This document shows, piece by piece, positions 2,852 through 49,447 of a DNA stretch of 64,000 bases; position 1 is the stretch's first letter, and each line of letters begins with the position of its first letter. Made by a program: the position numbers and the translations under genes. Under the pieces are notes generated by a model. That model searched no databases and was not told where the DNA came from. It worked only from the letters and a program-made list of their open reading frames with translations. The DNA lies in IMG/VR virus record IMGVR_UViG_3300020718_000007, positions 84,390 to 148,389 of that record. One strand, written 5' to 3'. This DNA comes from a virus. Taxonomy: Duplodnaviria; Heunggongvirae; Uroviricota; Caudoviricetes.

Positions 2852-5470
2852 ATGCCTAAAATTAACTTATTAACCATCCAATCTGGAGATAGTCAGGCAA
2901 CATTGATTGATAAAATTAACTACAATTACGATCAATTATTAACTGCAGGTGGGGGACCACAAGGAATTCAGGGTAGAATTGGAATAACCGGCCCTGTTGG
3001 ACCTCAGGGTGAGATTGGTGTTGCGGGGCCTCAGGGGCAGGAGGGATCAAAGTGGTTTGTTTCTTCGCTTAGTCCAACGGGGGGTAGTCCATTAGGTATT
3101 CCTATTGCGGGTGATTACTGGCTGAGAGATGGGGATAAAGAAATCCTTATATTTGGACCTTCTGGAGCAGGATTGGATTGGGTTGATTCTGGATATAATT
3201 TAAGAGCGGATCAAATCTTTTCTGTTACAGGAAGCAACTGGAATACAACAACATCTAATTTTGATTCAGATGTTGCATATTATAGTCAAAATGATGTAGG
3301 TGATTTTTCTTTACTACTATCTGATTGGGGAATACAAGGAACTGGAACAAATTATGCTGGTGCAACATTATATGGTCTAAACTCAGAAAAGTCTAAATTT
3401 AAAATAGCTACATCATTAACAACAACTTATAGTAACCTTATATCTTTTGGTCGTTCTGATTTGGATAGCTCAAACTATGGGTCCCCGACATTTTCAAATA
3501 CACATAATCCTGTAATAAAATGGTCTACATCTCCTGGTATTGGTGCTACCGCAGGAACACCAAATATATGGGATATTAGATTTTATAATCCTATTGGTAA
3601 TTGGGATATGATAACAACTGGAGGAAATATTGGATTTAATTCTAATGGATTAAATAAAATAGAAACAACAGGTCTAACAGGGGGAACAATAGTTAATTTT
3701 TCATCTGGTGGATATTTTCAGGTTCTTCCTGGAGGATCAACTGGTTCTTCTTCGTCCCCATATTTTGGAGTAAATTCCATCGGAGCTGGTATAAAAACAA
3801 CAGCAGTTGCCAATACATTAGCAGTTAAGGGATCTGCATCATTTGCCCTTAATGATAGTTATAATTCTTTTGGGCTTTCTGGTGGATATGTTGGTGTTGA
3901 AAGGGGATTAAGAATAGCAGCAACCGGAGCAGCAGCTAATAATTTAACAGTAAAAGGTAGTGGATCTATAGGACAAACTGATTCCTATAATTCATTTTCT
4001 ATGCCAGCTGGATATTTTGGAATAGAAAATGGACTTAGAGTTGGTGCAACTGGATTTAATCCTTATGGAATACCGACAGGTACTGGCCCTGGTGCAACTG
4101 GATACTTACTTGGTGCAACAGAAGCTTATACTTATACAGGAGCTACTGGTACTTTTGTAACTCCAATGGCATTAATTTCAGGACAAGGAAACGGAGCAGT
4201 ATTCCAAGCAAGATTAGATAATCCTACTGGGCCCAATGCTATATTGTCTTGGGGTGATTCTACAATCTATCCATTTAATAACCCAATTATAAATAATCTA
4301 TCGCAGGAATATATTTCTTCAACAGGACCGATTCCTGTTGGGACATTCTTTGCTGGATATTATCATGGTGCTGGTAATTCTACTGGTGCAGGAAGTTATA
4401 GTAGCGCTTCTCTTTCTACGCCAGATCCAATTACTCAATTCCAAATCGTTTCTCAATATGGAATTGGAACACATGTTACAACATATGGACAAGGAGATAC
4501 ATTAAATTTATTTTCTAGATTATGGGGTCCCCAAACAACAAGTGCTAAAGTAGTACTCGGAGTAAATGGAATAGGGGTAGTACAGGCATTTCAAACCGGC
4601 GTTAGAATAAATGCTCAAAATTCTACTGTTCCTGATGGGCATACAAATTTAAGTGTAGAAGATGATTATGCTGGTCAAGGTTCATATTTTGGCCCAAGGG
4701 CAACAACAACAGCAGCTTGGCAAACACCAAGTGCATTAACTTATTGGCCTTATGGATGTCAACCAACACCAGCACCGATGGGTACAGTAAATAGGATTAA
4801 AGTTATTGGAAATAGCTCCGGTGACGGAATGAATGGTATAAATATTGCCCAGGAATTTGATAGTACTCCGTCAGGAATAAGTATCGGTGTAGTTGGATGT
4901 TTTGAAGGAAGTACTTCTTCTCCAAAAGCATTAACTATTACTGATTATGACCATTATACCCATATTGGTAATGTATATAGTACAATAACCTGGGATGGTA
5001 AAATGACTCTTGGGAAAAGATCCAATTTGGTAGGTACAACAATTACTAATATCTCCTTTGATTCATCCTTATCATCCTATGGGCCAGATACTGCTTCCTT
5101 GTTTACATATGGGGATATTAGCTGTAATGGTGTTGTTAGATCTGTAGGTGGATTTGCTTCTTCTGGATATTTTTATCCATCAAGTAGGAAATTAAAAGAT
5201 GACATACAGCCATTAACTTTAGGCCTAGATAAATTATTAAAATTAAATCCAGTTAGTTTTAATTGGAAAAAGAACGGAAAGCATGATATTGGTTTTATTG
5301 CAGAAGAAGTATTTGAAATTATTCCAGAGGCTGTATCTATAAATAGTGATGGCGAGGTAGAAGGATATGACCCAGGTAAAATAATTCCATTATTAACAAA
5401 AAGTATACAAGAACTAATATCTCAGGTAGCAGATCTTAGAAAAGAAATTGAAGTACTAAAACAAAAATAA
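2852..5470 (+). CDS. tail fibre/tail spike protein with N-terminal collagen-like Gly-X-Y repeats and C-terminal intramolecular-chaperone (peptidase S74-like) autoprocessing domain
   Basis: Gly-X-Y run GGGPQGIQGRIGITGPVGPQGEIGVAGPQGQEGSK (about nt 2948-3052); C-terminal ~95 aa YPSSRKLKDDIQPL...ISQVADLRKEIEVLKQK matches the Ser-Lys dyad chaperone domain of tail fibres and endosialidases (about nt 5170-5467). Confidence 0.7.
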   Translation: MPKINLLTIQSGDSQATLIDKINYNYDQLLTAGGGPQGIQGRIGITGPVGPQGEIGVAGPQGQEGSKWFVSSLSPTGGSPLGIPIAGDYWLRDGDKEILIFGPSGAGLDWVDSGYNLRADQIFSVTGSNWNTTTSNFDSDVAYYSQNDVGDFSLLLSDWGIQGTGTNYAGATLYGLNSEKSKFKIATSLTTTYSNLISFGRSDLDSSNYGSPTFSNTHNPVIKWSTSPGIGATAGTPNIWDIRFYNPIGNWDMITTGGNIGFNSNGLNKIETTGLTGGTIVNFSSGGYFQVLPGGSTGSSSSPYFGVNSIGAGIKTTAVANTLAVKGSASFALNDSYNSFGLSGGYVGVERGLRIAATGAAANNLTVKGSGSIGQTDSYNSFSMPAGYFGIENGLRVGATGFNPYGIPTGTGPGATGYLLGATEAYTYTGATGTFVTPMALISGQGNGAVFQARLDNPTGPNAILSWGDSTIYPFNNPIINNLSQEYISSTGPIPVGTFFAGYYHGAGNSTGAGSYSSASLSTPDPITQFQIVSQYGIGTHVTTYGQGDTLNLFSRLWGPQTTSAKVVLGVNGIGVVQAFQTGVRINAQNSTVPDGHTNLSVEDDYAGQGSYFGPRATTTAAWQTPSALTYWPYGCQPTPAPMGTVNRIKVIGNSSGDGMNGINIAQEFDSTPSGISIGVVGCFEGSTSSPKALTITDYDHYTHIGNVYSTITWDGKMTLGKRSNLVGTTITNISFDSSLSSYGPDTASLFTYGDISCNGVVRSVGGFASSGYFYPSSRKLKDDIQPLTLGLDKLLKLNPVSFNWKKNGKHDIGFIAEEVFEIIPEAVSINSDGEVEGYDPGKIIPLLTKSIQELISQVADLRKEIEVLKQK

Positions 5471-23967: not shown

Positions 23968-25386
23968 ATGATAATCGACATTGAAAATTTAGGAGAATCG
24001 CTAAGAGTTTCCCATTATACGACAGAAGGGGATGTTGCTTTCTTAGATCTTCCAATCCCAGAGAGAGACCGATATGTTTGGAAAAGAGCATCTCCCGGAG
24101 ATAGAGGAGTTATTAAGGATTGGAAAACCTGGGATAAACAACCAGTAAAAGTCCAAAAGACACAAAAATATGATAAGTTTAGAATTACAGAAATTCTGGA
24201 ACAGTATGACAAAAAGGTAACCAAACCTTTATGGGAATATCAGACTCCACGAAAATATTGGGTGGATATAGAAGTTGAAGTTACCGATAATAAAGCGGAT
24301 TCCCTAGATACTTCAAAGGCAGCAAACAAAATACTAACATTAGCTATTGCATCTTCCTCTGGAAAGATACTTGCCTTAGGTTTAAAGAAATTAGAGCCCG
24401 ACCAAATCCTAAAAATAGAAAAGAAAGTAAACGAGCATTTCAAAAAATTTGATGCTAAGTGGACTTTTAATTATAGGAGTTTTGATAGCGAGTTTGATAT
24501 GATCTATACCTTCATGTCAAAACTAATGCACAAGATGCCATTAATAAGTGGATGGAACTGGTTTGGATATGACTGGCCTTATTTATTATCCAGAGCAAAA
24601 AGGTTAGGTATAGATCCTAAGATTTGTTCTCCAAGCGGAGTATTGTTAACTAAGCAACAAATCCCAATGCATGGTCTTATGGTCGATTACATGGAGATCT
24701 ATAAGAAATGGGATAGGGTAATAAAAGTTAGAGAAGCAAACTCTCTGGAATATGTTAGCCAAGCAGCATTCGGAGTAGGTAAAGTAAAATATAATGGTAA
24801 TTTAAAATCTCTTTATGAGGATGATTTTGAAAACTATGTATTCTATAATGCAGTTGACTCCTGCCTCTTAGATTATATTGACCACAAACTAAATACATTA
24901 TCAACTTTCTTTAAAATAGCATTGGTAACTGGTGTAGAAATTAATAGGGCACTATCTCCTGTATGGACAACAGAGGTTCTAATGTTAAGAGAATTCTTAT
25001 CCAGAAAGAGAGTTATTCTATACGAACAAAAGGACGAAGATACAAGAAAATTTGAAGGAGCGATTGTTAAAAATCCAATCAAAGGATTACATGAATGGAT
25101 TTCTCTTTATGACTATGCTTCTCTGTATCCAAATGCAATGATCCAGTTTGGTATCTCTCCTGAAATCTATATCGGCAAGGATTTAGAAAATCCGCCACCA
25201 GGATCATGGAAAACAGCATCCGGAGCATATTTCTGTCCAGAACCAGGTGAAGAGCCTGTATTGAGAAAAGTATTACAGACCTTATATGGTATGCGTAAAA
25301 CTACCAAAAGTAAGTATATGGATTGCGAAATGAAAATTGAAGAACTAAACAAAATATTAAAAAATAAAAAAACTCAAGTAGTATGA
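23968..25386 (+). CDS. gp43-N: family-B DNA polymerase, N-terminal fragment (3'-5' exonuclease motifs plus polymerase motif A), T4 gp43-like
   Basis: Exo I region DIEVEV, Exo II region FYNAVDSCLLDYID (T4: ISYNIIDVESVQAID), motif A LYDYASLYPNAMIQ (T4: FDLTSLYPSIIRQ); the ORF stops about 70 aa after motif A, with no motif B or C. Confidence 0.8.
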   Translation: MIIDIENLGESLRVSHYTTEGDVAFLDLPIPERDRYVWKRASPGDRGVIKDWKTWDKQPVKVQKTQKYDKFRITEILEQYDKKVTKPLWEYQTPRKYWVDIEVEVTDNKADSLDTSKAANKILTLAIASSSGKILALGLKKLEPDQILKIEKKVNEHFKKFDAKWTFNYRSFDSEFDMIYTFMSKLMHKMPLISGWNWFGYDWPYLLSRAKRLGIDPKICSPSGVLLTKQQIPMHGLMVDYMEIYKKWDRVIKVREANSLEYVSQAAFGVGKVKYNGNLKSLYEDDFENYVFYNAVDSCLLDYIDHKLNTLSTFFKIALVTGVEINRALSPVWTTEVLMLREFLSRKRVILYEQKDEDTRKFEGAIVKNPIKGLHEWISLYDYASLYPNAMIQFGISPEIYIGKDLENPPPGSWKTASGAYFCPEPGEEPVLRKVLQTLYGMRKTTKSKYMDCEMKIEELNKILKNKKTQVV

Positions 25387-25883
25387 AATCAGGAAATTTG
25401 TATTTTACAAAAACAAGAACAGTTAAAACACCGGCAAGGGGAACATCATCGTCGGCAGGAATAGATTTTTATGTACCAGAGGACTTTATCGAAGTTATGT
25501 TAGGTCCAGGTGATGATGTTTTAATTCCTTCTGGAATTAGAGTTAGAATTCCTGGAGGCTGCGTATTAACAGCATTTAATAAATCAGGAATAGCTACAAA
25601 AAAGAAATTGATTGTTGGTGCATGTGTAATAGATGAGGACTACACTGGCGAAATCCATTTACACTTAATAAACGCAGGAAAGGGAAATGTATCAATAAAG
25701 GCCAATGATAAAATAGCTCAGTTTATTTTGTCTCCTGTATTTTATACAGAACCAGAAGAAATTAATCAGGAGTCATATGAGTCTTTTGGTGAAACTTCTA
25801 GAGGAGCTGGTGGATTTGGTTCTACTGATAATGCCCCAACACTAAGTGGAGTTTCTGGGGTTTGTGGTTATCAAGGAACTTAA
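25383..25883 (+). CDS. dut: dUTPase
   Basis: SAGIDFYVP, RVRIPGGCVLTAFNKSGIA, GACVIDEDYTGEIHLHLIN and C-terminal RGAGGFGSTD match dUTPase motifs I-V; ATGA overlap with the polymerase fragment. Confidence 0.8.
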   Translation: MKSGNLYFTKTRTVKTPARGTSSSAGIDFYVPEDFIEVMLGPGDDVLIPSGIRVRIPGGCVLTAFNKSGIATKKKLIVGACVIDEDYTGEIHLHLINAGKGNVSIKANDKIAQFILSPVFYTEPEEINQESYESFGETSRGAGGFGSTDNAPTLSGVSGVCGYQGT

Positions 25884-25905
25884 AATAATCCTTTACTAAT
25901 CATTA

Positions 25906-25933
25906 AAAAGGCACCTTTTGGTGCCTTTTTTTA
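25906..25933 (+). terminator. rho-independent terminator
   Basis: AAAAGGCACC-TTTT-GGTGCCTTTTTTT. Confidence 0.55.
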
Positions 25934-25955: not shown

Positions 25956-28900
25956 GTGGATTATTCTATAATCAGTATAAATAAGCAGGTAATGAAGAAG
26001 AAAATAATTTATATTGCTCCTCACCTCTCTACTGGAGGACTTCCCCAATATCTTTTCAAAAAAATCGACCTATTAAAGGATAAACTTGAAATATATTGTG
26101 TGGAATATAACGATATAACAGGAGGACAACTTGTAGTACAAAAGAATAGGATTCAGTCTATATTGGATGGTAAACATTTTATTACACTTGGCAGTGATAA
26201 GAATGAACTTATTAGACTAATAGAAAGGATTAAACCTGATTATGTCCATCTGGAAGAAATTCCAGAGGATGGTGGATGGGGTTGGGCGAAGGGTACGTTG
26301 GAAAAAATATATTCTCTGGATAGAACTTATAAAATATTTGAAACTAGCCACGATTCATCATTTGAACCAGACACAAGAAAAATATATTTTCCCGACGCAT
26401 TTTTCTTTGTTAGTAAATGGCAAATAGATCAGTATAAGAATATTAATGTTCCTAAGTATTTGGCAGAATATCCTATAGAATATAGGGAAAGACCAGATAG
26501 GAATTCTTCACTAATTAGCCTGGGATTAGACCCATCCAAAAAACACATTCTTAATGTTGGCCTATTTACACCAAGAAAAAACCAGGGTGAAATATTTGAA
26601 ATTGCTAGATCTTTTGGAGAAGATGTACAATTTCATTTTCTTGGAAACCAGGCAGGTAATTTTGAATCTTATTGGAAACCTTTAATGGCAAATATACCAA
26701 AAAACTGTAAATGGTGGGGTGAAAGAAATGATGCAGATAGATTCTATTCCTGTATGGATCTTTTCTTGTTTACCTCGGAAGGTAATCCAGGAAACAAAGA
26801 AACAATGCCATTAGTTCTAAGGGAAGCCATAGGATGGAAAATGCAAATCCTATTGTATAATCTTGATGTGTATCAGAATTATTTCAATAGATTTAATAAT
26901 GTTACCTATTTAAATGAAGGAAATAAAAAAGCTAATGTAGAGCTTGTTAAAAAAATGATAAGCTCTAATTATATAGAATTTGTAGAAATTGAGGAGGGGC
27001 CAAACGTAAAATATTTTTCTGGTAATTATGACAGGGAGAAAAATATAATTTACTTTGAGGTAATAAATGAGCATCCAACTTTAAAAAAATTCAATTATCG
27101 GCTTAGAGATTTTGTTAATGGATTAACATTTCAACCAATTGGAAGAGATTATGATTTCAAAAAAGGTATAACATTTAATGTTGGCCCTAATGCTCGTAAT
27201 GATGACCATAATGGGCTTATCCTAGAATTGTTTGATGGTAATGAAAATATTATTGAAACCCATACATACGAATCTTGGGGTAAAGTTAAAGGAAGTTGGG
27301 ACCCTTTAAGATACCCCAAAACAGAATTATGGATTAACGATAAACTCGTGAAGCTACATAGTCATCCAAATGATCATTCATCTTTTTGGAGCTATTACGA
27401 ATGTGTTCTTCGTGGGGATTATAAGGGCATAGAATCTGGTGATATAATAGTTGATGTTGGTGCAAATCTCGGATTTTTCAGCCTTAGCGCAATTAAGCAA
27501 GGTGCTTCTAAAGTATATGCTATAGAACCTTTTCCAGAAACATTCGATTATTTAACTAAAAACATAGAGGGATTACCTATAATCCCATTAAATTATGGAA
27601 TAGGAGATTCAGAAAAAGAAGCTGTATTTGTTGGAGGTGAAGTTACTTCTATCACACGTCTAGCCGAACTGGAAGAAAAACAAAATGATGGATTTTATGG
27701 AATTAATAAAACACTTACAAAAGTAAAATTAAAGCCATTTAACCAAATTATAAAAGAACAAAATATACAATTTATTGATTATCTAAAGATAGATTGTGAA
27801 GGAGGTGAAGAAGCTTTATTTAATACGATAGATCCTGAATATTTAAAATATAGGATTAAAAAAATAACAGGAGAATTACATTTACGATTAATTGGTGTTG
27901 ATGTGTATAATAAAATAAAATCTCAGCTTATCGAAGCTGGATTTGATTACAATGACGATTATACTCAGAATAAAGATATGGTTATCTTTTATGCAGAAAG
28001 GAAGCCAAAAATTAAATTAGTTCATATAATAAATAATCCAGAAGGGGAAAGAGAAAAATTATCTACTAAATCCTTATCTGAATTAACCAAATATGGAATA
28101 GAATATGAAAGACATATCACTCCATTATACACAAAAACTCCGCCTGCTGAAAATTGTAATAGACCATCCCAAGTTTCTCCTGTTCCCGGTGATTATTTAT
28201 TATCTCCTGGACATTATGGATGCTATTTAGGACATAAGGATGCAGTTTGCAATACCTTCGGTGATTTTGATGGATTATTAGTTTCTGAATGTGATGCTAT
28301 AATACAAATTCCTGCTAAGGAAATGGCAGAAAAAATAAAACAAACCTATTTCGATAATATTAAAAACGATCTAATACTTACAAGTTATGGAAAGTCTCTT
28401 CCTGGTTATCCTCATACTCATGTCACTGAGGATCTTTTCTGTTCGCAGAAAATAGTAGAAGCTCATTTGTATTTAATCTCTAGGCCTCATTTAGATACTC
28501 TAAAAGAATTATTTGCAACTAAGCCATGGGATGTATCAGATCTATGGTATGATACGTTCCTTTCTTCTTATAAAAGAGGAATTTATAAAAAACCATATGC
28601 TCTTCAGGCTAGAGGAGAATCATATTTGGATAAAACATACAAGGATGGCTATATAATCCATGACCATAGTGTTATTTATGATCCAAATTTTATCGATAAC
28701 GATATAACCGTTATTATTCAGACCTGTGATAAGTATAGAAATTTTTGGAATGGCTGGTATTTGGCATGGAAAAATAATTGGAATTGGGATTTGAAATGGC
28801 CAGTCGTATTTTGTAATGAGGAAATGGATTTACCTTTTAATGATCCAAGGATAGGTCAAATAAAATCCCCTGTTTCGAAAGATAAGAATGGATTTTCAAA

Positions 28901-29402
28901 TAGACTGAGTGATATTTTAGAAAAGGTTAAAACAAAGTATGTTCTTTATATTCAGGATGATATGTGGCTTACAAATAGTGTTAATTTTTCTACATTTAAG
29001 GAAGCACTTTATAAGGTAAGATATAATGATTGGAATTGTTTAAGATTACATGAAAAGATTTGGTTAAATTATACATTGGAAAAAACTAGGCATTTTGTAA
29101 ACGAGAAAAGAGTATTGAAAATGAAGAGTACTAGTGAATGGTTACTTACTCATAATGCGGCTATTTGGAATAAACAATTTTTAATGGAATCTATATTACC
29201 TGATGAGGACCCTTGGACAAATGAAGTAGAAGGTGGAGTCAGGATTTCTAAAAAATATACTGATCCTAAAATTTATCATCTCAATGAGAGATGGTATTAT
29301 CAACCAGGAGCATCCCAGAATGGTATCATAAATTCATTTATGGAACAATATCAAAGGTACCTGCAATACGCAGAAGATTTAAAACAAGAAATGGACATAT
29401 AA
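25956..29402 (+). CDS. giant multi-domain glycosyltransferase (GT4-like, FkbM-type methyltransferase, GT25-like, C-terminal unknown domain)
   Basis: GT4-type E..G..EA.A.G motif (NPGNKETMPLVLREAIGWKMQ); FkbM methyltransferase motif DVGANLGFFSLSAIKQGASKVYAIEPFPETF; GT25-like HYGCYLGHKDA; 1148 aa. The TATAAATA at 25975 suggests the real start may be the internal Met at 25992. Confidence 0.6.
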   Translation: MDYSIISINKQVMKKKIIYIAPHLSTGGLPQYLFKKIDLLKDKLEIYCVEYNDITGGQLVVQKNRIQSILDGKHFITLGSDKNELIRLIERIKPDYVHLEEIPEDGGWGWAKGTLEKIYSLDRTYKIFETSHDSSFEPDTRKIYFPDAFFFVSKWQIDQYKNINVPKYLAEYPIEYRERPDRNSSLISLGLDPSKKHILNVGLFTPRKNQGEIFEIARSFGEDVQFHFLGNQAGNFESYWKPLMANIPKNCKWWGERNDADRFYSCMDLFLFTSEGNPGNKETMPLVLREAIGWKMQILLYNLDVYQNYFNRFNNVTYLNEGNKKANVELVKKMISSNYIEFVEIEEGPNVKYFSGNYDREKNIIYFEVINEHPTLKKFNYRLRDFVNGLTFQPIGRDYDFKKGITFNVGPNARNDDHNGLILELFDGNENIIETHTYESWGKVKGSWDPLRYPKTELWINDKLVKLHSHPNDHSSFWSYYECVLRGDYKGIESGDIIVDVGANLGFFSLSAIKQGASKVYAIEPFPETFDYLTKNIEGLPIIPLNYGIGDSEKEAVFVGGEVTSITRLAELEEKQNDGFYGINKTLTKVKLKPFNQIIKEQNIQFIDYLKIDCEGGEEALFNTIDPEYLKYRIKKITGELHLRLIGVDVYNKIKSQLIEAGFDYNDDYTQNKDMVIFYAERKPKIKLVHIINNPEGEREKLSTKSLSELTKYGIEYERHITPLYTKTPPAENCNRPSQVSPVPGDYLLSPGHYGCYLGHKDAVCNTFGDFDGLLVSECDAIIQIPAKEMAEKIKQTYFDNIKNDLILTSYGKSLPGYPHTHVTEDLFCSQKIVEAHLYLISRPHLDTLKELFATKPWDVSDLWYDTFLSSYKRGIYKKPYALQARGESYLDKTYKDGYIIHDHSVIYDPNFIDNDITVIIQTCDKYRNFWNGWYLAWKNNWNWDLKWPVVFCNEEMDLPFNDPRIGQIKSPVSKDKNGFSNRLSDILEKVKTKYVLYIQDDMWLTNSVNFSTFKEALYKVRYNDWNCLRLHEKIWLNYTLEKTRHFVNEKRVLKMKSTSEWLLTHNAAIWNKQFLMESILPDEDPWTNEVEGGVRISKKYTDPKIYHLNERWYYQPGASQNGIINSFMEQYQRYLQYAEDLKQEMDI

Positions 29403-29403: not shown

Positions 29404-32400
29404 ATGGTAACGAAAGATAATTTACTGATTTGCTCTGTTAGGTGGAGCGAAGATTCACCTGGATTTAAGAACGCATTCTATACTCCAATTGAGCAATATA
29501 ATAATACAGGCTTAACCTATAAAATTTTCCAATACGAAAAGGAGCCTGAAATGGAAGCTCTATTTATTCAACGATATGGTTGGTTGGGTGAATATATTTA
29601 TTATAGGGTTTTTAAGTTATACGAATCTTTAAGGAAAGAGATAAAGGAAAATAATTATGACTATATCTTATTTATAGATTATAATGATACTATGTTTGTT
29701 GGTAATGCCAGAGAATTACTAATGAAGCTCAATCAGGTTAAAGCTGCCACCCTTCTGGGTGGAGAAATAACTAAATTTCCAGATGAGAAGATAACAGACC
29801 TTTGGCCAAATCCTATAACATTTGGTGAAGGTCCACATCTAAATGCTGGTATGCTATTTTCTAAATCATTAGACCTATTAATAATACTTAGAGATGCTAA
29901 AGAATTAATCGAAAAGCAACATATCCCATATACTAGTTGTCAAGGAGTATGGCAAATAATGTACCATTCTAATAAGTACGATATTCAAATTGATGAGAAT
30001 AATGAAATATTTTATAATTTGTATGGTAGAGAATTGAATAGGGATTATGGAATAATGAAAAATCATAGATTGGTTGTTTCTAATTCTACGATATGTCCAT
30101 TATTTATACATCAAAATGGTTGGCCCCATACGAGAGGATTAATAGATTTATTTGGTGAACCATTTAAAGAATATAATGAGTCCAGAAAGAAATTATCCTC
30201 CACAAAATTATCCATCGTAACTTCTTATTATAATTGTGAGAAATTCATAGAGGAACAAGCAAAATCTATATTGAGCCAAACATATACTAATTGGGAATGG
30301 ATTATTTGTGACGATTTTTCAACAGATGGTACTAAGAAAAAACTAATAGAGCTTGCTAAATCTGATTCCCGAATTAAATTAGTGGAGCAGAAACACAAGA
30401 AAGAGGTTTGGTGGAATCCACAAATTCATGCAACTGGTTCTATAGTATGTCCGATAGATGGTGATGATAAGATATTACCCAAGACTTTTGAAAAGATAGT
30501 CTATTATTTTAACAAATTTCCTGATATTGTATTACTACATTTCAATGCCAATAAATATAATGATGTCCTTCCACAGAGAAAAGAAGACATTATAGACAAA
30601 TTCCTTGATAATGTTTATATTTCAAGGGACAATATTTCTTTCTTGGATGCTTTTGAAAGGTTATGGCATCAAAGGTCTTGTATTTTTGGATATTTACGTA
30701 TTTTTAGAAATTTACCAGGATTAAATTTCAAAGTTCATCCTGATGGTGATGCCTGTTCGTCTAATGATGGTCAGTGGCTTTTATATTTAGAAGAAAGGGG
30801 AAAATGCTTGGCTATACCCAGAACTACTTATATAGCTAGGAATCATGGAAACTCTGAGAACTATCGAAATTGGAACATTAGGGGTGAGGCTAATCTAGTT
30901 ACTGATACGCAAAAAAGAAGGCAAGGAATGGACCTAGAAATGCCTAGAATCAGTGATTATTTCAATGAGGTATATGTAGCTGCAGAATCTACATATCTGA
31001 GCCAATTGAATTGGGAATCCGAGAGTAAAAAGATTTGTTTCTTTAACTATCAATACTCCGAAAGACAAAAGTTAAAGTTGAAAGAATTGTTCTTCGACCA
31101 TGAAATTTTCTTTGATGGAAATGATAAAATGTATGATTATTGCTTTATTCGGATAAGGCAAGATAGTGTTGAATCCGAGATAATGGAAATAATGGAACGT
31201 GTTTCGGGAAGAGTTAATCTTTATTGTGATAATGTTCATTTGCACCAGAATAATAGAACTGGTAAAAATACGCTCAATGAGATCAGGGATTCATTGGCTA
31301 AGAAATATAATTTCTATTGGAACATTCAAGAGAATAGAGGGATAATCTATGTTTTTGATAGTATTAAAGGAGATAAAATAGATAAGAAGATAATGGATGA
31401 TGTTTTATTAAAAGGGTATGAAGAAACTCCACTAGTAGTTAAAGAAACTAAAGAAGTAGGAAATGAGTGCTTCTTTACTTTTATTGATGGACCAAAAGTA
31501 ACAATCAATGGACCAAAGGATGCTGAATATTTGGTAAAATTTATAGACCTAGATACCCAAAAAGAAGTCTTCACTTCAATAATTAGGAACAACCACTGGA
31601 CAGCATGTTCGGTTAAGTATTGTATGCCTTGGGTGATAGAAGTATATGAAAATAATATCCTCTGGCAAACTCATAAATTTGACCCCAAGGGTAAGAGAGT
31701 CTATATACATTTAGATTCTAATTCTCTCGGGGATACACTTGCATGGGCACCATATGCAGAAGAGTTTAGAAAAAAATGGGATTGTAATGTTATTTTTTCT
31801 ACTCATCGTAACTATTTCTTTGAAGGACAATATCCGGAAATAGAAATGGTTAAACCTGGCACGATTGTTAATAACCTTTATGCAAGTTTTGGCATAGGTT
31901 GGTATTATGATCAAGCAGGTAATGTAGAAAGATATAAAAATCCTTATGATTTTAAAAGCTATCCCCTACAACAGACTGCTACTGATATTCTAAATATGGA
32001 TTTTGAAGAAGTCAAACCAAAACTTAAGATTAAGGATAAAGGTAGAAAAGTTCCTGGTAAAAGGCCATATGTTTGTATAGCTCCCCATGCATCGGCACTA
32101 GCAAAATATTGGAATCTACCGAATGGATGGCAAGGCCTAGTTAATCATTTAAGGAATGAGGGATATGATGTTGTTATGATTACTCAGGAAAAATTGGGTA
32201 ATCCATGGGATGATGGAAAAATAGGTGGAAAACTAACAGGGGTAATAGATAAAACTGGGGATCGCCCATTAGAGGAAAGGATTAATGATATTAAACATGC
32301 CGCTGCTTTTATTGGTGTTGGTAGTGGATTAAGTTGGTTAGCATGGGCAATAGATACCCCAGTATTAATGATTTCAGGATTTAGCGAAGAATGGACAGAG

Positions 32401-32601
32401 TTTACAAAAAATTGTGTTAGAGTAATTAATGAAACTGGTTGTAGAGGATGCTTTAATCGTGCAAGGTTAGATGCTGCAGATTGGAGGTGGTGTCCTGACC
32501 ATAAGGATACGGATAGACAATTTGAATGCACTAAATTAATATCATTGGAACAAGTTATAAATTCATTTAATAAACTAGAAATCAAAAGAAATGAGCAATA
32601 A
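29404..32601 (+). CDS. giant multi-domain glycosyltransferase (GT2 domain plus GT9 heptosyltransferase-like C-terminal domain)
   Basis: GT2 signature LSIVTSYYNCEKFIEEQAKSILSQTYTNWEWIICDDFSTDGT; C-terminal CIAPHASALAKYW...IGVGSGLSWLAWAIDTPVLMISG resembles GT9; 1065 aa. Confidence 0.6.
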   Translation: MVTKDNLLICSVRWSEDSPGFKNAFYTPIEQYNNTGLTYKIFQYEKEPEMEALFIQRYGWLGEYIYYRVFKLYESLRKEIKENNYDYILFIDYNDTMFVGNARELLMKLNQVKAATLLGGEITKFPDEKITDLWPNPITFGEGPHLNAGMLFSKSLDLLIILRDAKELIEKQHIPYTSCQGVWQIMYHSNKYDIQIDENNEIFYNLYGRELNRDYGIMKNHRLVVSNSTICPLFIHQNGWPHTRGLIDLFGEPFKEYNESRKKLSSTKLSIVTSYYNCEKFIEEQAKSILSQTYTNWEWIICDDFSTDGTKKKLIELAKSDSRIKLVEQKHKKEVWWNPQIHATGSIVCPIDGDDKILPKTFEKIVYYFNKFPDIVLLHFNANKYNDVLPQRKEDIIDKFLDNVYISRDNISFLDAFERLWHQRSCIFGYLRIFRNLPGLNFKVHPDGDACSSNDGQWLLYLEERGKCLAIPRTTYIARNHGNSENYRNWNIRGEANLVTDTQKRRQGMDLEMPRISDYFNEVYVAAESTYLSQLNWESESKKICFFNYQYSERQKLKLKELFFDHEIFFDGNDKMYDYCFIRIRQDSVESEIMEIMERVSGRVNLYCDNVHLHQNNRTGKNTLNEIRDSLAKKYNFYWNIQENRGIIYVFDSIKGDKIDKKIMDDVLLKGYEETPLVVKETKEVGNECFFTFIDGPKVTINGPKDAEYLVKFIDLDTQKEVFTSIIRNNHWTACSVKYCMPWVIEVYENNILWQTHKFDPKGKRVYIHLDSNSLGDTLAWAPYAEEFRKKWDCNVIFSTHRNYFFEGQYPEIEMVKPGTIVNNLYASFGIGWYYDQAGNVERYKNPYDFKSYPLQQTATDILNMDFEEVKPKLKIKDKGRKVPGKRPYVCIAPHASALAKYWNLPNGWQGLVNHLRNEGYDVVMITQEKLGNPWDDGKIGGKLTGVIDKTGDRPLEERINDIKHAAAFIGVGSGLSWLAWAIDTPVLMISGFSEEWTEFTKNCVRVINETGCRGCFNRARLDAADWRWCPDHKDTDRQFECTKLISLEQVINSFNKLEIKRNEQ

Positions 32602-35741: not shown

Positions 35742-36992
35742 TTATAATATTTTTAAATTTTCCTTATTATCAAATATCCAAAATTCAAACAATAATCCTT
35801 TATTGATACAAGAATCTCTTTTAATTAAATTTATTTCTAAATTTCTAATAAGTGTAAACTCTGATTTAACTTCTATAACTTTATTATCGGGTATTATATA
35901 AATATCTATTAGATATTGTCTTTCCTTATTCTCGTATTTATCGAAGTATGTAATTTTACCTATTTTATTTCTTATTTCTTTATCTATAATAAGTAAATCT
36001 TCTTCTTTATAAGTTTTTAAAAGGATATCCAGAGCATAATTTTCATACCCTTGTATTTTAACAATTCTACCAGATGGTAATACATAATCTTTATATTTTC
36101 CATGAAATGGATATTCAATACTCCATTTTTCGAGCATAAATTTTATGTGTTCTTTTGATCCTAAATAGGATTTAAATTGATATCTATCCATACAGGTATT
36201 CTCCCTTCTTATTTTAACACCTTCATTAGAAGAAGGATATTCTGTCCCATACTTTAATAATGAGTAATCTTTGAATTTTCTTTTAAATTCCTCTGTTTCT
36301 GTATACCAATCTTTATTATATCTTTCTTTTATTGTATTTGATATTTTTTCTCTAACACTAGGATTTTTAAATTGATGATCAACTCCATACTTTTTTAAGT
36401 TAGTTTCTTTTAATTTATCTTTAAATGCTTGAGATTGTGTTACGTGTTCTACTCCGTATTTTTCTAATGATGTGGATTTTATTTTATCTCTAAATTCTTG
36501 TGTTTGTGAGTAACTTTCTACCCCATACCTTTCCAAATTTAATTTCTTACAATGTTTTTTAAATTCTTTAGATTGAGTATTATACTCAACCCCAATATTT
36601 TTTAAATTAGTTTCTTTAATTTTTTCTTTAATTGTTTCACTTTGATATACATTTTCTACCCCATATCTTTCTAAATTGGTAGTTATGGTTTTAATAGATC
36701 TTTCCGGATGATTAGCTCCACATTTAATTGAACATGTTTTATTATAACCCCATTTATTAGGATTAAATTTTAACTTATTTGTATTGCAGATTGAACAAAT
36801 AGGAGTAGAAAGTAAGTTATTAATTATATGAAATATTCTCTCTGAATATGTTTCATTATCTATTAAATAATTTGTTTCTAATAAAATAAAATTCTGGATT
36901 ACTTTTGAATTTCTTATACTAGCATTCAATGATGATCTACCTTTATTATCTAATATTTTAGTAGCCCAATTTTTTAATTCGCATCTATTCAT
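35742..36992 (-). mobile_element. putative homing-type endonuclease gene (N-terminal Zn finger, four to five ~35-aa tandem repeats, C-terminal PD-(D/E)XK-like motif)
   Basis: the only sizeable minus-strand gene in a + strand block; CSICN...CSIKCG zinc finger; repeats LERYGVENVYQSE / LERYGVESYSQTQ / LEKYGVEHVTQSQ / LKKYGVDHQFKNP; C-terminal IDIYIIPDNKVIEVKSEF (PD...EVK). Confidence 0.4.
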
Positions 36993-37131: not shown

Positions 37132-38931
37132 ATGAAAGAAAACAACAAAGAAATAGAGGTGTTATCGGAGCGGGACCACATCAGGCTCAGACCAACGGTG
37201 TATGTTGGCAGCGTAAGACCTACCGAAGAGAAAATACCAATCATTAAAGACTGTAGAATATTTATAGAGCCAAAGACTATTTCTGTTGGCCTCTATAAAC
37301 TTTTTGATGAGGTGTTTTCCAATTCCTTAGATGAAGCAAAAAGGATGAAAGGTAAGATGAAATCTATAACTGTAAGTATAGATTCCAAAAAGAATTCCGT
37401 TACAGTAAAGGATACTGGTAATGGATTTTATAAGGGTAGTTCAAAAAATAAAGTATCTGGGCTTTCCAATATTGAAACTGCAGTTTCTCAATTAAGAGCA
37501 GGAACAAATTTTAAAAATGGCGAAGTTGAAGAAGCATTAGTTGGAACTAATGGTATGGGAGTAAGTCTTGTTAACGTACTCTCCAGAAAATTTTCAATAG
37601 TAACTACAAACGTTGAACATAAGTATGAACAACATTGGGATGATTACGAAAGGAGAGAGCCAATAATAACAAAGAATGAGGGTAATATTCCATTAGGAAC
37701 AGAGGTTACATTTGAACCTATAACAGATGCAAGTGTTTTTGGTAGGTCTAAATGGGATATGGAAATTATAAAAACCCAGCTTATTTTTAAATTACGCTTA
37801 ATCAAAAAAGATCCGGTTATTAATAATTTAAGTATAGATTTTTATTGGGATGGTATTAAAATACCTCTTGATATTTCTCTATATCCCAAAGGTTCGTTTT
37901 CATTAGAAACACCAATTGGAGAAGTAATTATTTGGGAAAAATATGAAGGTAGCGGTTCTATAAGTTTTGTTAACTCTGCGATGTGTACTGGTATACATCA
38001 AAGGATAGTAAATGAATTTATTAATGCTAAATTGGAAGATAGTTTAGGTCATCACTTTTATGATACCTTTATTTCTTTAAATCTTCAACCTAAACTAGTT
38101 CATTTTGGGGATCAAAATAAGACCAAGTTTATAACACCAAGGGAAGAAGTAGAACCAACTATATCCAGAACGATTCTTAGTAAGTTAGGAGCATTTTTCA
38201 AAACCGAATTATTTGCTTCTATACAAACAAAGGTAGAAGAAAGGAGAACAGAAGGACATGTTAAGAAATTAAGGGCAGAAAAGAGAAAGGTTAATGTTAA
38301 AAATTCTCATAAGTATTTCCCAGCAGGAAAGAATAATGCAGAAAACTTATTTATAGTGGAAGGATTATCAGCGATGGGCTCAATACTTCAAAAGAGGGAT
38401 CCAGATAGAGATGGCATCTATGCACTAAAAGGTAAGATTAAGAATTGTAGGAACCTTGGGGATCTTTCCGAAAACAAGGAAATTTTGGAGCTAATGCAAA
38501 TTCTTAATTTGGATCCTACACTTAAAACAGTCCACAGCATTTCCGGGTATAGAAGGGTGATAATAGCAACAGATGCTGACCCTGATGGTGCACACATTAC
38601 TTCGCTATTGATAAATATGTTCTTTAAATGGTTTCCTGGAGTAATTTCTTATGGTCAATTAAATACCTTAAGGACCCCTCTTGTTTCTGTAGGAGATAAG
38701 GCAAAAAGGAAGTATTTCTTTGAGCTGGATGATTTTAAGAAAGCTAAACCAGCTGGAAATGTTAGATACTTAAAAGGTCTTGGTTCATTGGATATTGCCG
38801 ACTGGGAATATGTAATGGCAAATAAGGATTTAGCAGTAATAACCTATGATCCTAAAGCAAAAGAATATTTGGATATGGCATTCGGAGATTCATCAGATCT
38901 ACGTAAAAAATGGTTAGCAGGTAAAATATAG
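37132..38931 (+). CDS. gp39: DNA topoisomerase II large subunit (GyrB-like ATPase plus toprim; T4 gp39/gp60 equivalents in one gene)
   Basis: GHKL ATPase region; toprim motifs VEGLSAMGS and ATDADPDGAHI. Confidence 0.8.
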   Translation: MKENNKEIEVLSERDHIRLRPTVYVGSVRPTEEKIPIIKDCRIFIEPKTISVGLYKLFDEVFSNSLDEAKRMKGKMKSITVSIDSKKNSVTVKDTGNGFYKGSSKNKVSGLSNIETAVSQLRAGTNFKNGEVEEALVGTNGMGVSLVNVLSRKFSIVTTNVEHKYEQHWDDYERREPIITKNEGNIPLGTEVTFEPITDASVFGRSKWDMEIIKTQLIFKLRLIKKDPVINNLSIDFYWDGIKIPLDISLYPKGSFSLETPIGEVIIWEKYEGSGSISFVNSAMCTGIHQRIVNEFINAKLEDSLGHHFYDTFISLNLQPKLVHFGDQNKTKFITPREEVEPTISRTILSKLGAFFKTELFASIQTKVEERRTEGHVKKLRAEKRKVNVKNSHKYFPAGKNNAENLFIVEGLSAMGSILQKRDPDRDGIYALKGKIKNCRNLGDLSENKEILELMQILNLDPTLKTVHSISGYRRVIIATDADPDGAHITSLLINMFFKWFPGVISYGQLNTLRTPLVSVGDKAKRKYFFELDDFKKAKPAGNVRYLKGLGSLDIADWEYVMANKDLAVITYDPKAKEYLDMAFGDSSDLRKKWLAGKI

Positions 38932-41891: not shown

Positions 41892-43319
41892 ATGAGCACA
41901 AAGAAAACAATCACAATCCCTGAACAAATCAATCAGGACTATCGAAAGTATGCCTTGTACGTAATACAAAGTAGGGGTATACCAAATTTTTATGACTGTA
42001 TAACTCCTGTACAACGACTCATTTTACAAAATGCACCATCTACGTTTTCAAAAACTCCTGGTGTAATTGGTAGTGTATTTAGTACTGGATTATATCACCA
42101 CGGAGATTCCTCGTTGGCTTCCGCAATTTCTAAGTTGGCTAGACCATTTGGATGTTCGGAACAGATAATGGAGGGTGACGGATTCTTCGGAACTCCAGTA
42201 AATCCTAGACCAGCAAGTGCAAGGTATACCATGGTGAAAATTGTTCCTAAATATAGAAATATGTTAGAGGAATATAAGGATCTAAATATGCCCAATGAAG
42301 AAGGTGGATATGATTGGCTTAATGTAACATATCCGATTGGATTATCAACACATATTGTTGGTATTGCAGTAGGATATAGTTCTAACATCCTTCCAAGAAA
42401 ACAGGAAGAGGTAGAAGCTTATTTACAAGGAGATACTACTAAGAAATTAAAACCTTACTTCAAAGGATTTAGGGGTAAAATATCAAAGATAGAAGGACTT
42501 AAATCTTCCTGGTTAATAGAAGGAGAATTCTCGGTTAATAAGCCAAACAAAACTATTCAAATAATGAGCCTTTCTCCATTAGCTCGTTATGATAGTTTTA
42601 TTACTAAGATAGGTTTACTTCTTGATAATAAAGGTGTAGATTATCGTATAGAGAATAGATCAAAAGATGAAGTAGAAGTAACCATTAAATTAAAATGTTC
42701 CGATACCGAATTTGATGAAATTGCTACTAGAATCCAAAGAGAAACACAAAAAATAGTAACGGAAAATATAGTTTTTGTTAAAGATGGGTTAGTAATGGAA
42801 TATGAAAGTATCCAAGAATACTTAGACCAATTTAGAGTTCATAGAGAAGAAGTTACTTATAAAAGGTTAGTAAAGGATCTTTATTATAATGATAGGGAAT
42901 TAGCATTTCAGGAAGCTAAATTAAAGTTTCTGGTATTCATGCAAGCTAAGAAAAGGCTTAATGATGAAATAATGGAATTTCTAAAGCCTTATGATACCTG
43001 GATAAAATCACGATTGGAAGCTATTACGTTAGTTAAGTTGTCCGAGAAGGAAATAGAAATAACAAAACTAAAGATAGAAGAATTAAAAGCCACTGCTCTT
43101 GAAATTAAGGCAGCTATGAAGAATCAGGCTAATAAATGGGCAGCGATTAAAAAGGCATGGGAACAAGCAGCAAAATCTAAACCTAAACAATCTACTTTAA
43201 TGTTAGAAACAGCAGGTGAGGCTTTTGATGGTATTGAAATTTGGAATCCAGAAGAAGCAATGATACCAGAAGAAGATGAAGCAAGTATTCTTGATGACGA
43301 AGAAGGAATAGAAAACTAA
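41892..43319 (+). CDS. gp52: DNA topoisomerase II medium subunit (GyrA-like breakage-reunion domain), T4 gp52 family
   Basis: active-site Tyr context PASARYTMVKI (GyrA: AMRYTE); winged-helix region ITPVQRLIL. Confidence 0.75.
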   Translation: MSTKKTITIPEQINQDYRKYALYVIQSRGIPNFYDCITPVQRLILQNAPSTFSKTPGVIGSVFSTGLYHHGDSSLASAISKLARPFGCSEQIMEGDGFFGTPVNPRPASARYTMVKIVPKYRNMLEEYKDLNMPNEEGGYDWLNVTYPIGLSTHIVGIAVGYSSNILPRKQEEVEAYLQGDTTKKLKPYFKGFRGKISKIEGLKSSWLIEGEFSVNKPNKTIQIMSLSPLARYDSFITKIGLLLDNKGVDYRIENRSKDEVEVTIKLKCSDTEFDEIATRIQRETQKIVTENIVFVKDGLVMEYESIQEYLDQFRVHREEVTYKRLVKDLYYNDRELAFQEAKLKFLVFMQAKKRLNDEIMEFLKPYDTWIKSRLEAITLVKLSEKEIEITKLKIEELKATALEIKAAMKNQANKWAAIKKAWEQAAKSKPKQSTLMLETAGEAFDGIEIWNPEEAMIPEEDEASILDDEEGIEN

Positions 43320-44119: not shown

Positions 44120-45286
44120 ATGAATCAAGACTATAATAACCTTTCCATAGAGGAAATTGAAGCAGAAATAGCTAGGTTACAGGCACTTTCTAAAGACTAC
44201 AAAAATGAGGAACAAGGAATTAAATTAACCCTTAACTCAATATATGGAGCGCTTGGAAATCAATGGTTTGCATTATTTAACCTAGAAGTAGCAGAAGCTG
44301 TAACAATGCAAGGCCAGGATCTATGGAAATATGCAGAAAAAATCATTAACAGGTATTTCCACCAACACTGGCACCTGGATACAGAGCTACACGAAAAGTT
44401 AGGACTTAAAAATGTCAAACCAATAACAGTAGATATGGTTATCTACGGAGATACCGATAGTAACTATGTGAATATTGGTGCAGCATTAGATTCCTGTGAT
44501 TTTGAAGGTAATCCTTTGGACTTTGTATTGAAATTAGATGAATATAGGCTAAGGGGCTATATTAAGAAATGTTTGGACTTATATGCAGAAAAATGGAATA
44601 CTCAGAATTATCAGGATTTTGAATTAGAAAGTATTTCCAAAAATGGTATATTTCTTGGTAAAAAGAAAAACGTATTAAATGTTGCATGGGAATCTTCAGG
44701 ACATGACCAATTAGAAGATTTAAGTAAGGTAAAATATACAGGAGTAGAAATGGTAGTCGGCGGAACTGCACCCTTCGCCAGACTTCACTTAAAAAGTCTT
44801 GTAAACCACTTCTTTAAAAGGGGTAAGTCTTTTGACCTTCGGGAATTTGTGAAAATGCTAAGAGTAATCAAGTCGGATTTTAAATTACAAAAACCAGAAG
44901 ATATTTCAGTATCCATGAACGTAAATAATATGGAACAATATATCCTTTGTGATACATCCAGATTTGAAGTGGCTTCTAAATGTCCAATGCACGTAAGAGC
45001 TGCAGGGTATCATAATTTTATCCTAAACAACTCTAAATACAAGCAAAAATACACGCTAATTCGTTCTACAGATAAGATTAAGTTTTATTACGTAAAGGTC
45101 GGTAGCAAGCTCGAAAACAATGTTTTCGGTTATCTTGTAGGGGCTTATCCTTACGAGTATGCTCTGCCAATTGATATGGAGGAACAATTTAATCGTACAA
45201 TTTTGGACCCTATTAATAGGTTTTTAGAAGCTATGGGTTATCCCCCATTGAATTCAAATCTACTATTAGTGCATGCTTTATTTTAA
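44120..45286 (+). CDS. gp43-C: family-B DNA polymerase, C-terminal fragment (motifs B and C plus thumb), T4 gp43-like
   Basis: motif B KLTLNSIYGALGN (T4: KILINSLYGALGN), motif C IYGDTDSNYV; the ORF begins about 35 aa before motif B. Confidence 0.8.
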   Translation: MNQDYNNLSIEEIEAEIARLQALSKDYKNEEQGIKLTLNSIYGALGNQWFALFNLEVAEAVTMQGQDLWKYAEKIINRYFHQHWHLDTELHEKLGLKNVKPITVDMVIYGDTDSNYVNIGAALDSCDFEGNPLDFVLKLDEYRLRGYIKKCLDLYAEKWNTQNYQDFELESISKNGIFLGKKKNVLNVAWESSGHDQLEDLSKVKYTGVEMVVGGTAPFARLHLKSLVNHFFKRGKSFDLREFVKMLRVIKSDFKLQKPEDISVSMNVNNMEQYILCDTSRFEVASKCPMHVRAAGYHNFILNNSKYKQKYTLIRSTDKIKFYYVKVGSKLENNVFGYLVGAYPYEYALPIDMEEQFNRTILDPINRFLEAMGYPPLNSNLLLVHALF

Positions 45287-48212: not shown

Positions 48213-48285
48213 GGTGAGGTAGCTCAGTTGGTAGAGCGCAGCCCTGAAGAGGCTGGCGTCGGGGGTTCGAGTCCCTCCTTCACCA
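48213..48285 (+). tRNA. tRNA-Phe (anticodon GAA)
   Basis: manual cloverleaf: acceptor GGTGAGG/CTTCACC, D arm GCTC-AGTTGGTA-GAGC, anticodon stem CAGCC/GGCTG with loop CTGAAGA, T arm GGGGG-TTCGAGT-CCCTC. Confidence 0.8.
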
Positions 48286-48326
48286 CTCAAGACGGGAAAA
48301 GTACTGATACCCGCCGTGAACAAAGT

Positions 48327-48345
48327 CCTCGGTTCGTAACCGAGG
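48327..48345 (+). other. inter-tRNA spacer hairpin
   Basis: CCTCGGTT-CGT-AACCGAGG, 8-bp stem. Confidence 0.3.
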
Positions 48346-48351
48346 CAAACT

Positions 48352-48422
48352 ACGGGCGTAGTTCAATGGTAGAATATCGGTCTCCAAAACCGCAGATGGG
48401 GGTTCGAGTCCTTTCGCCCGTG
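48352..48422 (+). tRNA. tRNA-Trp (anticodon CCA)
   Basis: acceptor ACGGGCG/CGCCCGT, anticodon stem CGGT/ACCG with loop CTCCAAA, T arm GGGGG-TTCGAGT-CCTTT. Confidence 0.7.
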
Positions 48423-48430
48423 CCGCGAAA

Positions 48431-48470
48431 CTTTTGCACTTTTCTTGGATATATAGAATAAAACACTATT
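48431..48470 (+). repeat. direct repeat copy 1 (~40 nt, CTTTTGCACTTTTCTTGGATATATAGAATAAAACACTATT) upstream of the GIY-YIG gene
   Basis: near-identical copy at 49769-49809; contains an ATATATAgAATAAAA late-promoter-like core. Confidence 0.7.
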
Positions 48471-49361: not shown

Positions 49362-49366
49362 CATAT

Positions 49367-49439: not shown

Positions 49440-49447
49440 CATTAAAA

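Follow-up and report, generated by a model that had tools for sequence, protein, structure and literature searches.

The replicative DNA polymerase encoded in a 64,000-nucleotide stretch of a Caudoviricetes genome (IMG/VR virus record IMGVR_UViG_3300020718_000007, positions 84,390 to 148,389; hereafter the window) belongs to family B, is of the phage T4 gp43 type and, judging from the sequence, very probably consists of two separate polypeptides in non-covalent association. The two genes, termed here the N-half and the C-half, are on the same strand and are separated by 18,733 nucleotides (nt) (Table 1). The preliminary description of this DNA, prepared from the sequence alone, had assigned exonuclease segments and polymerase motif A, without motifs B and C, to the first open reading frame (ORF), and motifs B and C to the second, ~ 19 kb downstream. 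These assignments proved accurate. Two explanations had been offered, a two-subunit polymerase assembling in trans and a recent rearrangement. The former is supported by the tiling of the two products on gp43, by their conservation, by low ratios of non-synonymous to synonymous substitution rates (dN/dS) and by the lack of an intein, all of which point to a functional two-subunit enzyme. The latter is at odds with the presence of the split in distant relatives and in 31 of 31 IMG/VR contigs that contain both halves.

Division of gp43 between the two genes

Membership in the gp43 family is indicated by the presence of Exo I-III and motifs A, B and C across the two halves, and by the alignment of the two products with consecutive segments of the Pfam DNA_pol_B profile. 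The N-half matches DNA_pol_B_exo1 (2.5e-9) and positions 16-145 of the 453 positions of DNA_pol_B (2.1e-11), and the C-half matches positions 150-237 (7e-16). Exo I of the N-half corresponds to VDIEVE (residues 99-104) with the acidic residues D100 and E102, Exo II to GWNWFGYDWPY (residues 195-205) with D202, and Exo III to YNAVDSCL (residues 293-300) with Y293 and D297. Motif A, YDYASLYPNAM, spans residues 381-391 and provides the aspartate D382. The first finger helix, including R443 and K447, also belongs to the N-half, and the polypeptide terminates with a K/E-rich helix (…EMKIEELNKILKNKKTQVV) that extends ~ 25 residues past the conserved finger Arg and Lys. The chain ends 90 residues beyond the motif A aspartate and 79 residues beyond the end of the motif, rather than the roughly 70 residues estimated previously.

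The C-half starts with a helical head, ~ 30 helical residues ahead of motif B, and proceeds into the second finger helix. Motif B is contained in KLTLNSIYGALGN (residues 35-47) and comprises K35, N39, Y42 and G43, whereas motif C, YGDTDS, occupies residues 109-114 and includes the aspartates D111 and D113. The thumb and a hydrophobic C-terminal tail (…NLLLVHALF) are carried by the same polypeptide. The tail pattern NLLLV-x-A-L-F is conserved among 22 representative C-halves, with an invariant penultimate Leu and a last residue that is Phe in 19 and Tyr in 3, and alignment shows a resemblance to the T4 tail (…SLDFLFG). Binding of a sliding clamp through this tail is predicted. A GGAG sequence is located 6 nt ahead of the C-half ATG. 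Both halves have proper start and stop codons and are packed tightly against their neighbors.

Comparison with solved structures placed the N-half on residues 188-432 of RB69 gp43 (expectation value (E) of 2e-25) and on T4 gp43 up to residue 501, and the C-half on residues 537-812 of RB69 gp43 (E of 5e-15). Along the full-length PHROG family phrog_262 (856 positions), the N-half covers positions 70-501 and the C-half positions 492-839. A search with T4 gp43 matched the window at two places only, with residues 185-500 and 557-884, and each half is accordingly present as a single copy within the 64,000 nt. As the preliminary description had anticipated, the MAFFT, structure and PHROG comparisons show that the two products tile gp43 without overlap and are not independent paralogs.

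Alignment of the joined halves with T4 gp43 using MAFFT located the break at T4 residues 514/515, in accord with its earlier placement in the fingers region. This position, the fingertip, falls in the loop that connects the two long finger helices, upstream of motif B. An AlphaFold2 (AF2) model of the joined halves, a forced fusion computed from 28 N-half and 22 C-half homologs in an unpaired alignment, contains helices 431-473 and 482-519 flanking the junction, with a short intervening loop and a predicted local distance difference test (pLDDT) score of ~ 80. The top 50 Foldseek matches of this model in the Protein Data Bank (PDB) were all RB69 or T4 gp43, with a template modeling (TM) score of 0.53 and E of 3e-26. 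Such a geometry would fit a pair of antiparallel finger helices, one supplied by each subunit.

Recurrence of the split and its relation to known split polymerases

An identical N-half protein was found on 7 contigs, the longest of which is 473,921 bp. The gene order N-half, dUTPase, glycosyltransferase was present in all four places shown (JGI 3300021139, JGI 3300020716, Logan SRR4029378 and ENA ERZ27271912), and three further contigs were listed as similar. An identical C-half protein was also found on 7 contigs overall, in the order topoisomerase A, a 256-amino acid (aa) ORF, C-half and DUF5856, with one place shown and five listed as similar.

More than 120 homolog clusters were obtained for each half. 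The best 120 are 449-480 aa long with 53-87% identity for the N-half, and 366-392 aa long with 59-83% identity for the C-half. The 31 IMG/VR contigs that contain both halves all carry them on one strand with the C-half downstream; 30 of these have gaps of 12.8-22.0 kb and one distant relative has a gap of 1.9 kb, with a median of 18.3 kb over the 31. The C-half relatives in IMG/VR were detected by an alignment-based scan, whereas a single-sequence scan found none. Two ENA contigs have gaps of 15.4 kb (62-65% identity) and 23.5 kb (87-91% identity). Comparison with a relative of 87-91% identity yielded dN/dS of 0.063 for the N-half and 0.060 for the C-half, values that indicate purifying selection but are approximate because dS is 1.1-1.5, near saturation. 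The residues D100/E102, D202, Y293/D297, D382 and R443/K447 are invariant in 28 N-half representatives, as are K35/N39/Y42/G43, D111/D113 and the KKK triplet at positions 181-183 in 22 C-half representatives.

The preliminary description had considered that related genomes might hold an intact gene 43 and that remnants of an intein, a homing endonuclease or repeats might be present at the break points. No fused gene was encountered among 182 related loci or among the best 120 clusters listed for each half, and neither break is marked by an intein, intron or repeat. Neither half matched Intein_splicing at E ≤ 0.01, and no intein blocks A/B or F/G are visible at the fingertip break. At gathering thresholds, Rfam detected no intron in the window and no RNA in the interval between the halves, the only matches being to a tRNA array downstream. 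A repeat search over positions 23000-46500 returned short AT-rich matches only, none pairing the break points, and this region appears from its sequence to be free of terminal repeats and recombination scars.

The nearest phage relatives in GenBank are the uncultured LR756500-LR756504 and LR745206 (462-735 kb) and the Prevotella Lak megaphages, with full-length matches at 30-39% identity, followed by Sphingomonas phage PAU at 26-28% identity. All of these are split at the same site as the window polymerase. Their N-half ORFs, 472-514 aa in length, share the K/E-rich helix at the end, and a helical head opens the C-half ORFs. Of the six megaphages examined, five encode the halves on opposite strands; the separations range from 13 to ~ 280 kb. 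Gaps of 1.9-5.8 kb separate the halves in IMG/VR relatives of 34-43% identity, and several of these gaps contain ribonucleotide reductase subunits followed by a ~ 250-aa clamp gene. The layouts form a series, from a gap of ~ 2-6 kb with the reductase and clamp genes, to 13-23 kb in the window clade, where the gap gained topoisomerase II, DnaJ, adenylate kinase and glycosyltransferases, and to full dispersal in the megaphages. The split is old and fixed, and is common to every sampled member of a deep lineage comprising PAU, the IMG/VR huge phages, LR756500-LR756504, LR745206 and Lak. The dispersed layout is the norm for this huge-phage lineage.

In LR756500 (LR756500.1 245786-252598, reverse complement; 416-1186 and 2875-3816) and Lak-A2 (MK250019.1 342508-350614; 2968-3780 and 4136-5110), a split intein further interrupts the C-half at motif C. 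The N part of the intein, at the end of the middle piece, matches Intein_splicing with 39.8 bits in LR756500 and 38.1 bits in Lak-A2, and the C part (…VYDIEVDD.THTF.ANDIL.HNS) opens the last piece. A gene encoding a DUF7487 homing endonuclease is located between the two intein-bearing pieces of LR756500. Because the motif C split intein adds a break, the polymerase of these two phages would be in three pieces, with one non-covalent and one trans-splicing junction. LR756502, LR756501 and LR745206 contain an in-frame insertion of ~ 85 aa just past motif C, and their C-half ORFs are 474-566 aa long. In seven IMG/VR members of the window clade, the C-half match begins at residue 80, 113 or 134, or spans ~ 500 extra nt, which suggests introns or inteins inside the C-half of these members. 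The window copy is uninterrupted.

Fingertip-split gp43, encoded by genes 43A and 43B, occurs in Aeromonas phages 44RR, 25, 31 and 65 and in Acinetobacter phage 133 (Petrov et al. 2006, J Mol Biol 361:46, and 2010, J Mol Biol 395:457, as cited in PMC3061061 and PMC2988022; PMC2677866). The known split genes are 2 bp to ~ 3 kb apart (PMC3061061), and the 43A and 43B proteins of phage 25 co-purify and are active (PMC2988022). The earlier statement that known split halves are adjacent is therefore correct insofar as they are close, at most ~ 3 kb apart, but not in the strict sense, and the rarity that it implied was overstated. The phage 25 record contains 43A, a homing endonuclease and 43B in this order, and alignment placed the break at T4 residues 510/511. 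The window halves share with 43A and 43B the fingertip loop as the site of the break, their own start and stop codons, the lack of an intein and the partition of the domains. However, 43A and 43B occupy one locus, sometimes with an endonuclease between them, whereas the window genes are separated by 18.7 kb and a hairpin follows the N-half and dUTPase genes. The gaps of PAU and the distant relatives, at 1.9-5.8 kb, approach the spacing of the known pairs. Two half-length PHROG families cover these proteins: phrog_2062 matches phage 25 43A (5e-221), PAU gp105 (1e-130) and the window N-half (2.4e-64), and phrog_1918 matches C-halves, including PAU gp110.

Pairwise comparison of phage 25 43A with the unsplit T4 gp43 yields 486 bits and 49% identity, versus 82 bits and 23% identity with the window N-half. 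The N-halves of the window, IMG/VR phages, megaphages and PAU score 135-462 bits with one another versus 79-137 bits with T4. The far higher similarity of phage 25 43A to T4 gp43 indicates that the fingertip was probably split independently at least twice. Every sampled member of the window lineage is split. Phage PAU (JQ362498), with an N-half of 487 aa and a C-half of 404 aa, resembles the window in having both genes on the same strand and the same break site, and differs in its gap of 2.4 kb. Only gp110 is noted as 'DNA polymerase' in GenBank, and no publication on the PAU split was found in the searchable literature.

Family B polymerases (PolB) divided in other ways provide further comparisons. 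The PolB of Methanothermobacter thermautotrophicus is encoded by two genes 85 kb apart, and its parts assemble without an intein (Kelman et al. 1999, J Biol Chem 274:28751, as cited in PMC3061061). However, the break in this archaeal cellular enzyme of an unrelated lineage is in the palm, ~ 83 residues C-terminal to the fingertip position; such a palm break downstream of motif B is absent here, the window break being upstream of motif B. The split-intein PolB proteins of Nanoarchaeum equitans, Pseudomonas phage MIJ3/PA5oct and Aeromonas phage Aes123 (PMC2677866, PMC6892783, PMC11923092) are likewise replicative enzymes encoded in pieces, with an origin tied to mobile elements, but differ in that IntN and IntC pieces are trans-spliced, whereas the window break is without an intein. 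Pfu polymerase engineered with a split near the fingertip is fully active, its C-fragment being insoluble unless refolded with the N-fragment (PMC3061061). It sets a mechanistic precedent for complementation without a covalent link. This split is artificial, cuts within helix alpha-O rather than the loop, and concerns a thermophilic archaeal enzyme. In the gene-breaking model of Dassa et al., the last and hypothetical step is the movement of the parts to separate loci, or 'dislocation' (PMC2677866). The window and megaphage layouts match this step, and the arrangement at motif C of LR756500 and Lak-A2 matches the 'fractured gene' layout of the same model.

The searchable literature contained no report of a dispersed split PolB in Lak or other huge phages. 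The Lak paper makes no mention of DNA polymerase, a jumbo-phage survey includes a split Pol III alpha and no split PolB, and the Jug-phage paper describes polymerase genes split by endonuclease insertions, a different situation. The window system is of a kind already known, both as intein-less fingertip-split gp43 and, in Methanothermobacter, as far-apart PolB genes. What is new is the separation of 13-23 kb (up to ~ 280 kb in megaphages), the fixation across a huge-phage lineage and the conserved pairing of the clamp and C-half genes. The occurrence of fingertip-split gp43 extends from a few Aeromonas and Acinetobacter phages to a deep and widespread lineage of huge phages, with contigs of up to ~ 480 kb. 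The split was kept as the distance between the genes grew from ~ 2 kb to hundreds of kb and the genes came to lie on opposite strands; a family B polymerase thus appears able to work stably as a heterodimer even when its genes are unlinked. Annotators of huge phages should expect two polymerase ORFs, or three when motif C contains a split intein, and should avoid labeling these as truncated genes or pseudogenes.

The proposed heterodimer and alternative explanations

In the proposed heterodimer, the N-subunit would provide the N-terminal domain, the proofreading exonuclease, the palm strand with motif A and the first finger helix. The remaining parts, namely the second finger helix bearing motif B, the palm hairpin with motif C, the thumb and the clamp-binding tail, would come from the C-subunit. 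Because each subunit contributes the catalytic aspartates of only one of motifs A and C, and only one of the two finger helices, neither product could polymerize alone, and the polymerase site and the fingers that bind deoxynucleoside triphosphates (dNTPs) would form only in the heterodimer. The location of the break in the fingertip loop means that one subunit would end and the other begin with one long helix, and that these two helices would pack antiparallel to one another.

The halves probably also belong to different transcription units, the N-half with the dUTPase gene and the C-half behind the clamp gene in the topoisomerase II module. The ATG of the dUTPase gene overlaps the stop codon of the N-half (ATGA), which makes translational coupling of the two likely, and the same junction is present on independent contigs. 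The hairpin downstream of the dUTPase gene suggests that the N-half transcription unit ends there, apart from that of the C-half. Matches to sigma-70 promoters were fewer than in shuffled sequence and thus uninformative.

Several points weigh against a functional heterodimer with separately transcribed subunits. The association and activity of these proteins are predicted from sequence comparison and from precedents in other split polymerases. The joined AF2 model is moderately confident (mean pLDDT of 68 and predicted TM score (pTM) of 0.52), and the pLDDT of the palm around motifs A and C is below 50, therefore the model is no test of the interface. The equivalent of the primer-binding KKRY motif is KKKN in the window C-half (residues 181-184, positions 44660-44671). 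Twenty of 22 relatives read GKKKY at this location, compared with GKKKN in the window, which lost the Tyr; Arg is replaced by Lys and the lysines are invariant. Separate transcription hangs on a single consensus terminator match, and the near-saturated dS blurs the dN/dS values.

Assembly of the two halves into one enzyme could also be more than a tolerated state. It may be, although we consider this rather unlikely, that the split is a selected design of the whole lineage. The polymerase would then be an obligate heterodimer with subunits that come from different modules, the N-half being expressed alongside genes of nucleotide metabolism and the C-half being translationally coupled to the clamp, an arrangement that would regulate assembly, stoichiometry or timing; or else the open fingertip would alter nucleotide selectivity, for example towards modified dNTPs, as in the Pfu split. 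A similarly tentative extension is that in Lak-type megaphages the selected design includes a three-piece enzyme with non-covalent and split-intein junctions.

Independent functions of the two products, with the N-half acting as a stand-alone exonuclease and the C-half having another partner or being inactive, are improbable. The exonuclease domain is complete within the N-half, an N-terminal fragment of the T4 protein (388 aa) was crystallized alone (PDB accession number 1noy), and the genes belong to separate modules and are probably transcribed as separate units. However, motif A, the first finger helix and motifs B and C are invariant, as expected only if one polymerase site is built from both products. 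In addition, the halves co-occur on the 31 IMG/VR contigs, and the window contains no second copy of either. A stand-alone exonuclease role in addition to that in the polymerase is still compatible with these observations.

Covalent rejoining of the halves by a split intein or by transcript joining, as in Nanoarchaeum PolB, MIJ3 and Aes123, is very improbable. Split inteins are common in phage PolB (PMC6892783, PMC11923092), and the C-halves of LR756500 and Lak-A2 contain one at motif C. However, the window halves exhibit no Intein_splicing match, intein block or Rfam intron, and the ~ 25 and ~ 30 helical residues that border the break are too short for IntN (~ 100 aa) or IntC (~ 35 aa ending with HN). 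Moreover, the detectable split inteins of the relatives are located at motif C only and not at the fingertip.

Even less credible is a recent rearrangement or decay that left one or both halves as non-functional remnants. In its favor are the homing endonuclease inside the interval and the different gap contents of close relatives (18.7 versus 23.5 kb). Nonetheless, dN/dS is 0.06 in both halves with invariant catalytic residues, the split and gene order are kept in all 31 contigs, and the split itself is retained down to relatives of 27-36% identity, with no fused homolog among the 182 loci and the best 120 clusters per half. The gap and its flanks do not differ in G+C content other than at the endonuclease, which is itself missing from a similarly split relative. 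An assembly artefact, that is, a chimeric join in what is metagenome-type sequence, has a negligible probability, because each junction recurs with an identical protein on 7 contigs from several samples, the same layout is present in 31 IMG/VR and two ENA contigs, and the start and stop codons are tightly packed. Programmed bypass or a genome rearrangement that joins the halves was rejected in view of the distance of 18.7 kb, the lack of repeats and the opposite strands in five of six megaphages.

The clamp gene and the interval between the halves

The gene immediately upstream of the C-half encodes a protein that adopts the PCNA fold of sliding clamps. The two genes are 2 nt apart (TAA-tt-ATG). 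No Pfam or PHROG match was obtained for the clamp ORF, but a profile of 19 homologs identified Sulfolobus PCNA in the PDB with E of 6e-5. The AF2 model of the clamp (pLDDT of 92.7 and pTM of 0.88) exhibits the two-domain fold of a PCNA protomer, and its top 50 Foldseek matches in the PDB are all PCNA, with TM scores of 0.57-0.72 and E of ~ 1e-11. Comparison of the clamp family with the T4-type gp45 of phage 25 using hhalign revealed no similarity; by sequence, the clamp is PCNA-like rather than gp45-like. The clamp gene adjoins the C-half upstream in 53 of 55 clade loci and also in distant relatives, and its dN/dS relative to the 87-91% identical relative is 0.034. The pairing of the clamp gene with the gene of the subunit predicted to bind it is the most conserved linkage of the system. 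For annotation purposes, the conserved ~ 250-aa gene that precedes the C-half can be named a sliding clamp. More than 460 clamp homologs without a Pfam domain are present in the protein collection, and those among the 120 listed that carry a name from their source are called hypothetical protein.

Table 1 Features of the window, and separation of the polymerase halves in related phages.
Feature	Coordinates or separation	Strand	Basis or remark
Polymerase N-half (43A-like subunit), 472 aa	23968..25386	+	Pfam, structure and PHROG matches; motifs
dUTPase gene (context)	25383..25883	+	Pfam dUTPase 1.4e-23
Terminator-like G+C hairpin then T-run, after dUTPase	25905..25930	+	11-bp stem, 5 G-C pairs
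Free-standing homing endonuclease, DUF7487 / phrog_3339	35742..36992	-	Domain and PHROG match
Topoisomerase II ATPase/Toprim subunit (context)	37132..38931	+	Upstream of C-half in 49/55 clade loci
Topoisomerase II A (cleavage) subunit (context)	41892..43319	+	phrog_551 2.9e-58; DNA_topoisoIV in relatives
PCNA-fold sliding clamp, 256 aa	43347..44117	+	Profile, AF2, Foldseek
Polymerase C-half (43B-like subunit), 388 aa	44120..45286	+	Pfam, structure and PHROG matches; motifs
PAU gp105 / gp110	2.4 kb	same strand	Four small genes between
LR756500 halves	~13 kb	same strand	
LR745206 halves	~100 kb	opposite strands	
LR756501 halves	~116 kb	opposite strands	Separation if circular
LR756502 halves	~130 kb	opposite strands	
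Lak-A2 halves	~220 kb	opposite strands	
LR756504 halves	~280 kb	opposite strands	

The gap between the halves contains 13 ORFs of at least 110 aa. These encode, in order, the dUTPase, two giant glycosyltransferase/methyltransferase proteins, a protein resembling the methyltransferase family phrog_799, adenylate kinase, a GT2 protein, a DUF192 protein, the homing endonuclease, the topoisomerase II ATPase/Toprim subunit, an unassigned ORF, DnaJ, the topoisomerase II A subunit and the clamp. The preliminary description had correctly listed the dUTPase, glycosyltransferases, adenylate kinase, topoisomerase subunits and DnaJ, but missed the endonuclease and the clamp. The topoisomerase II A subunit is present in 52 of 55 clade loci.

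The homing endonuclease gene is the sole minus-strand gene of the interval, with G+C of 0.25-0.27 compared with 0.30-0.35 for the gap, which equals the flanks. It is absent from the same DUF192/topoisomerase junction in an 87% identical relative, and because this close relative is similarly split, the endonuclease is considered a late arrival unrelated to the break. The gene contains an internal tandem repeat of 4 x 69 nt (36379-36693), and homologs are located directly after the N-half in LR756500 and Lak-A2.

The two giant multi-domain proteins (25956-29402, 1148 aa, and 29404-32601, 1065 aa, both on the plus strand) contain GT1, FkbM-type methyltransferase, GT2, GT9 and PLOD-type GT domains. 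The glycosyltransferase island includes extra genes in the 87% identical relative, where the distance between the halves is 23.5 kb versus 18.7 kb in the window. Downstream of the C-half by ~ 3 kb, 14 tRNA genes (Phe, Trp x2, Gly, Tyr, Val x3, Glu x2, Asp x2, Ser and Cys) are located on the plus strand at 48213-55017.

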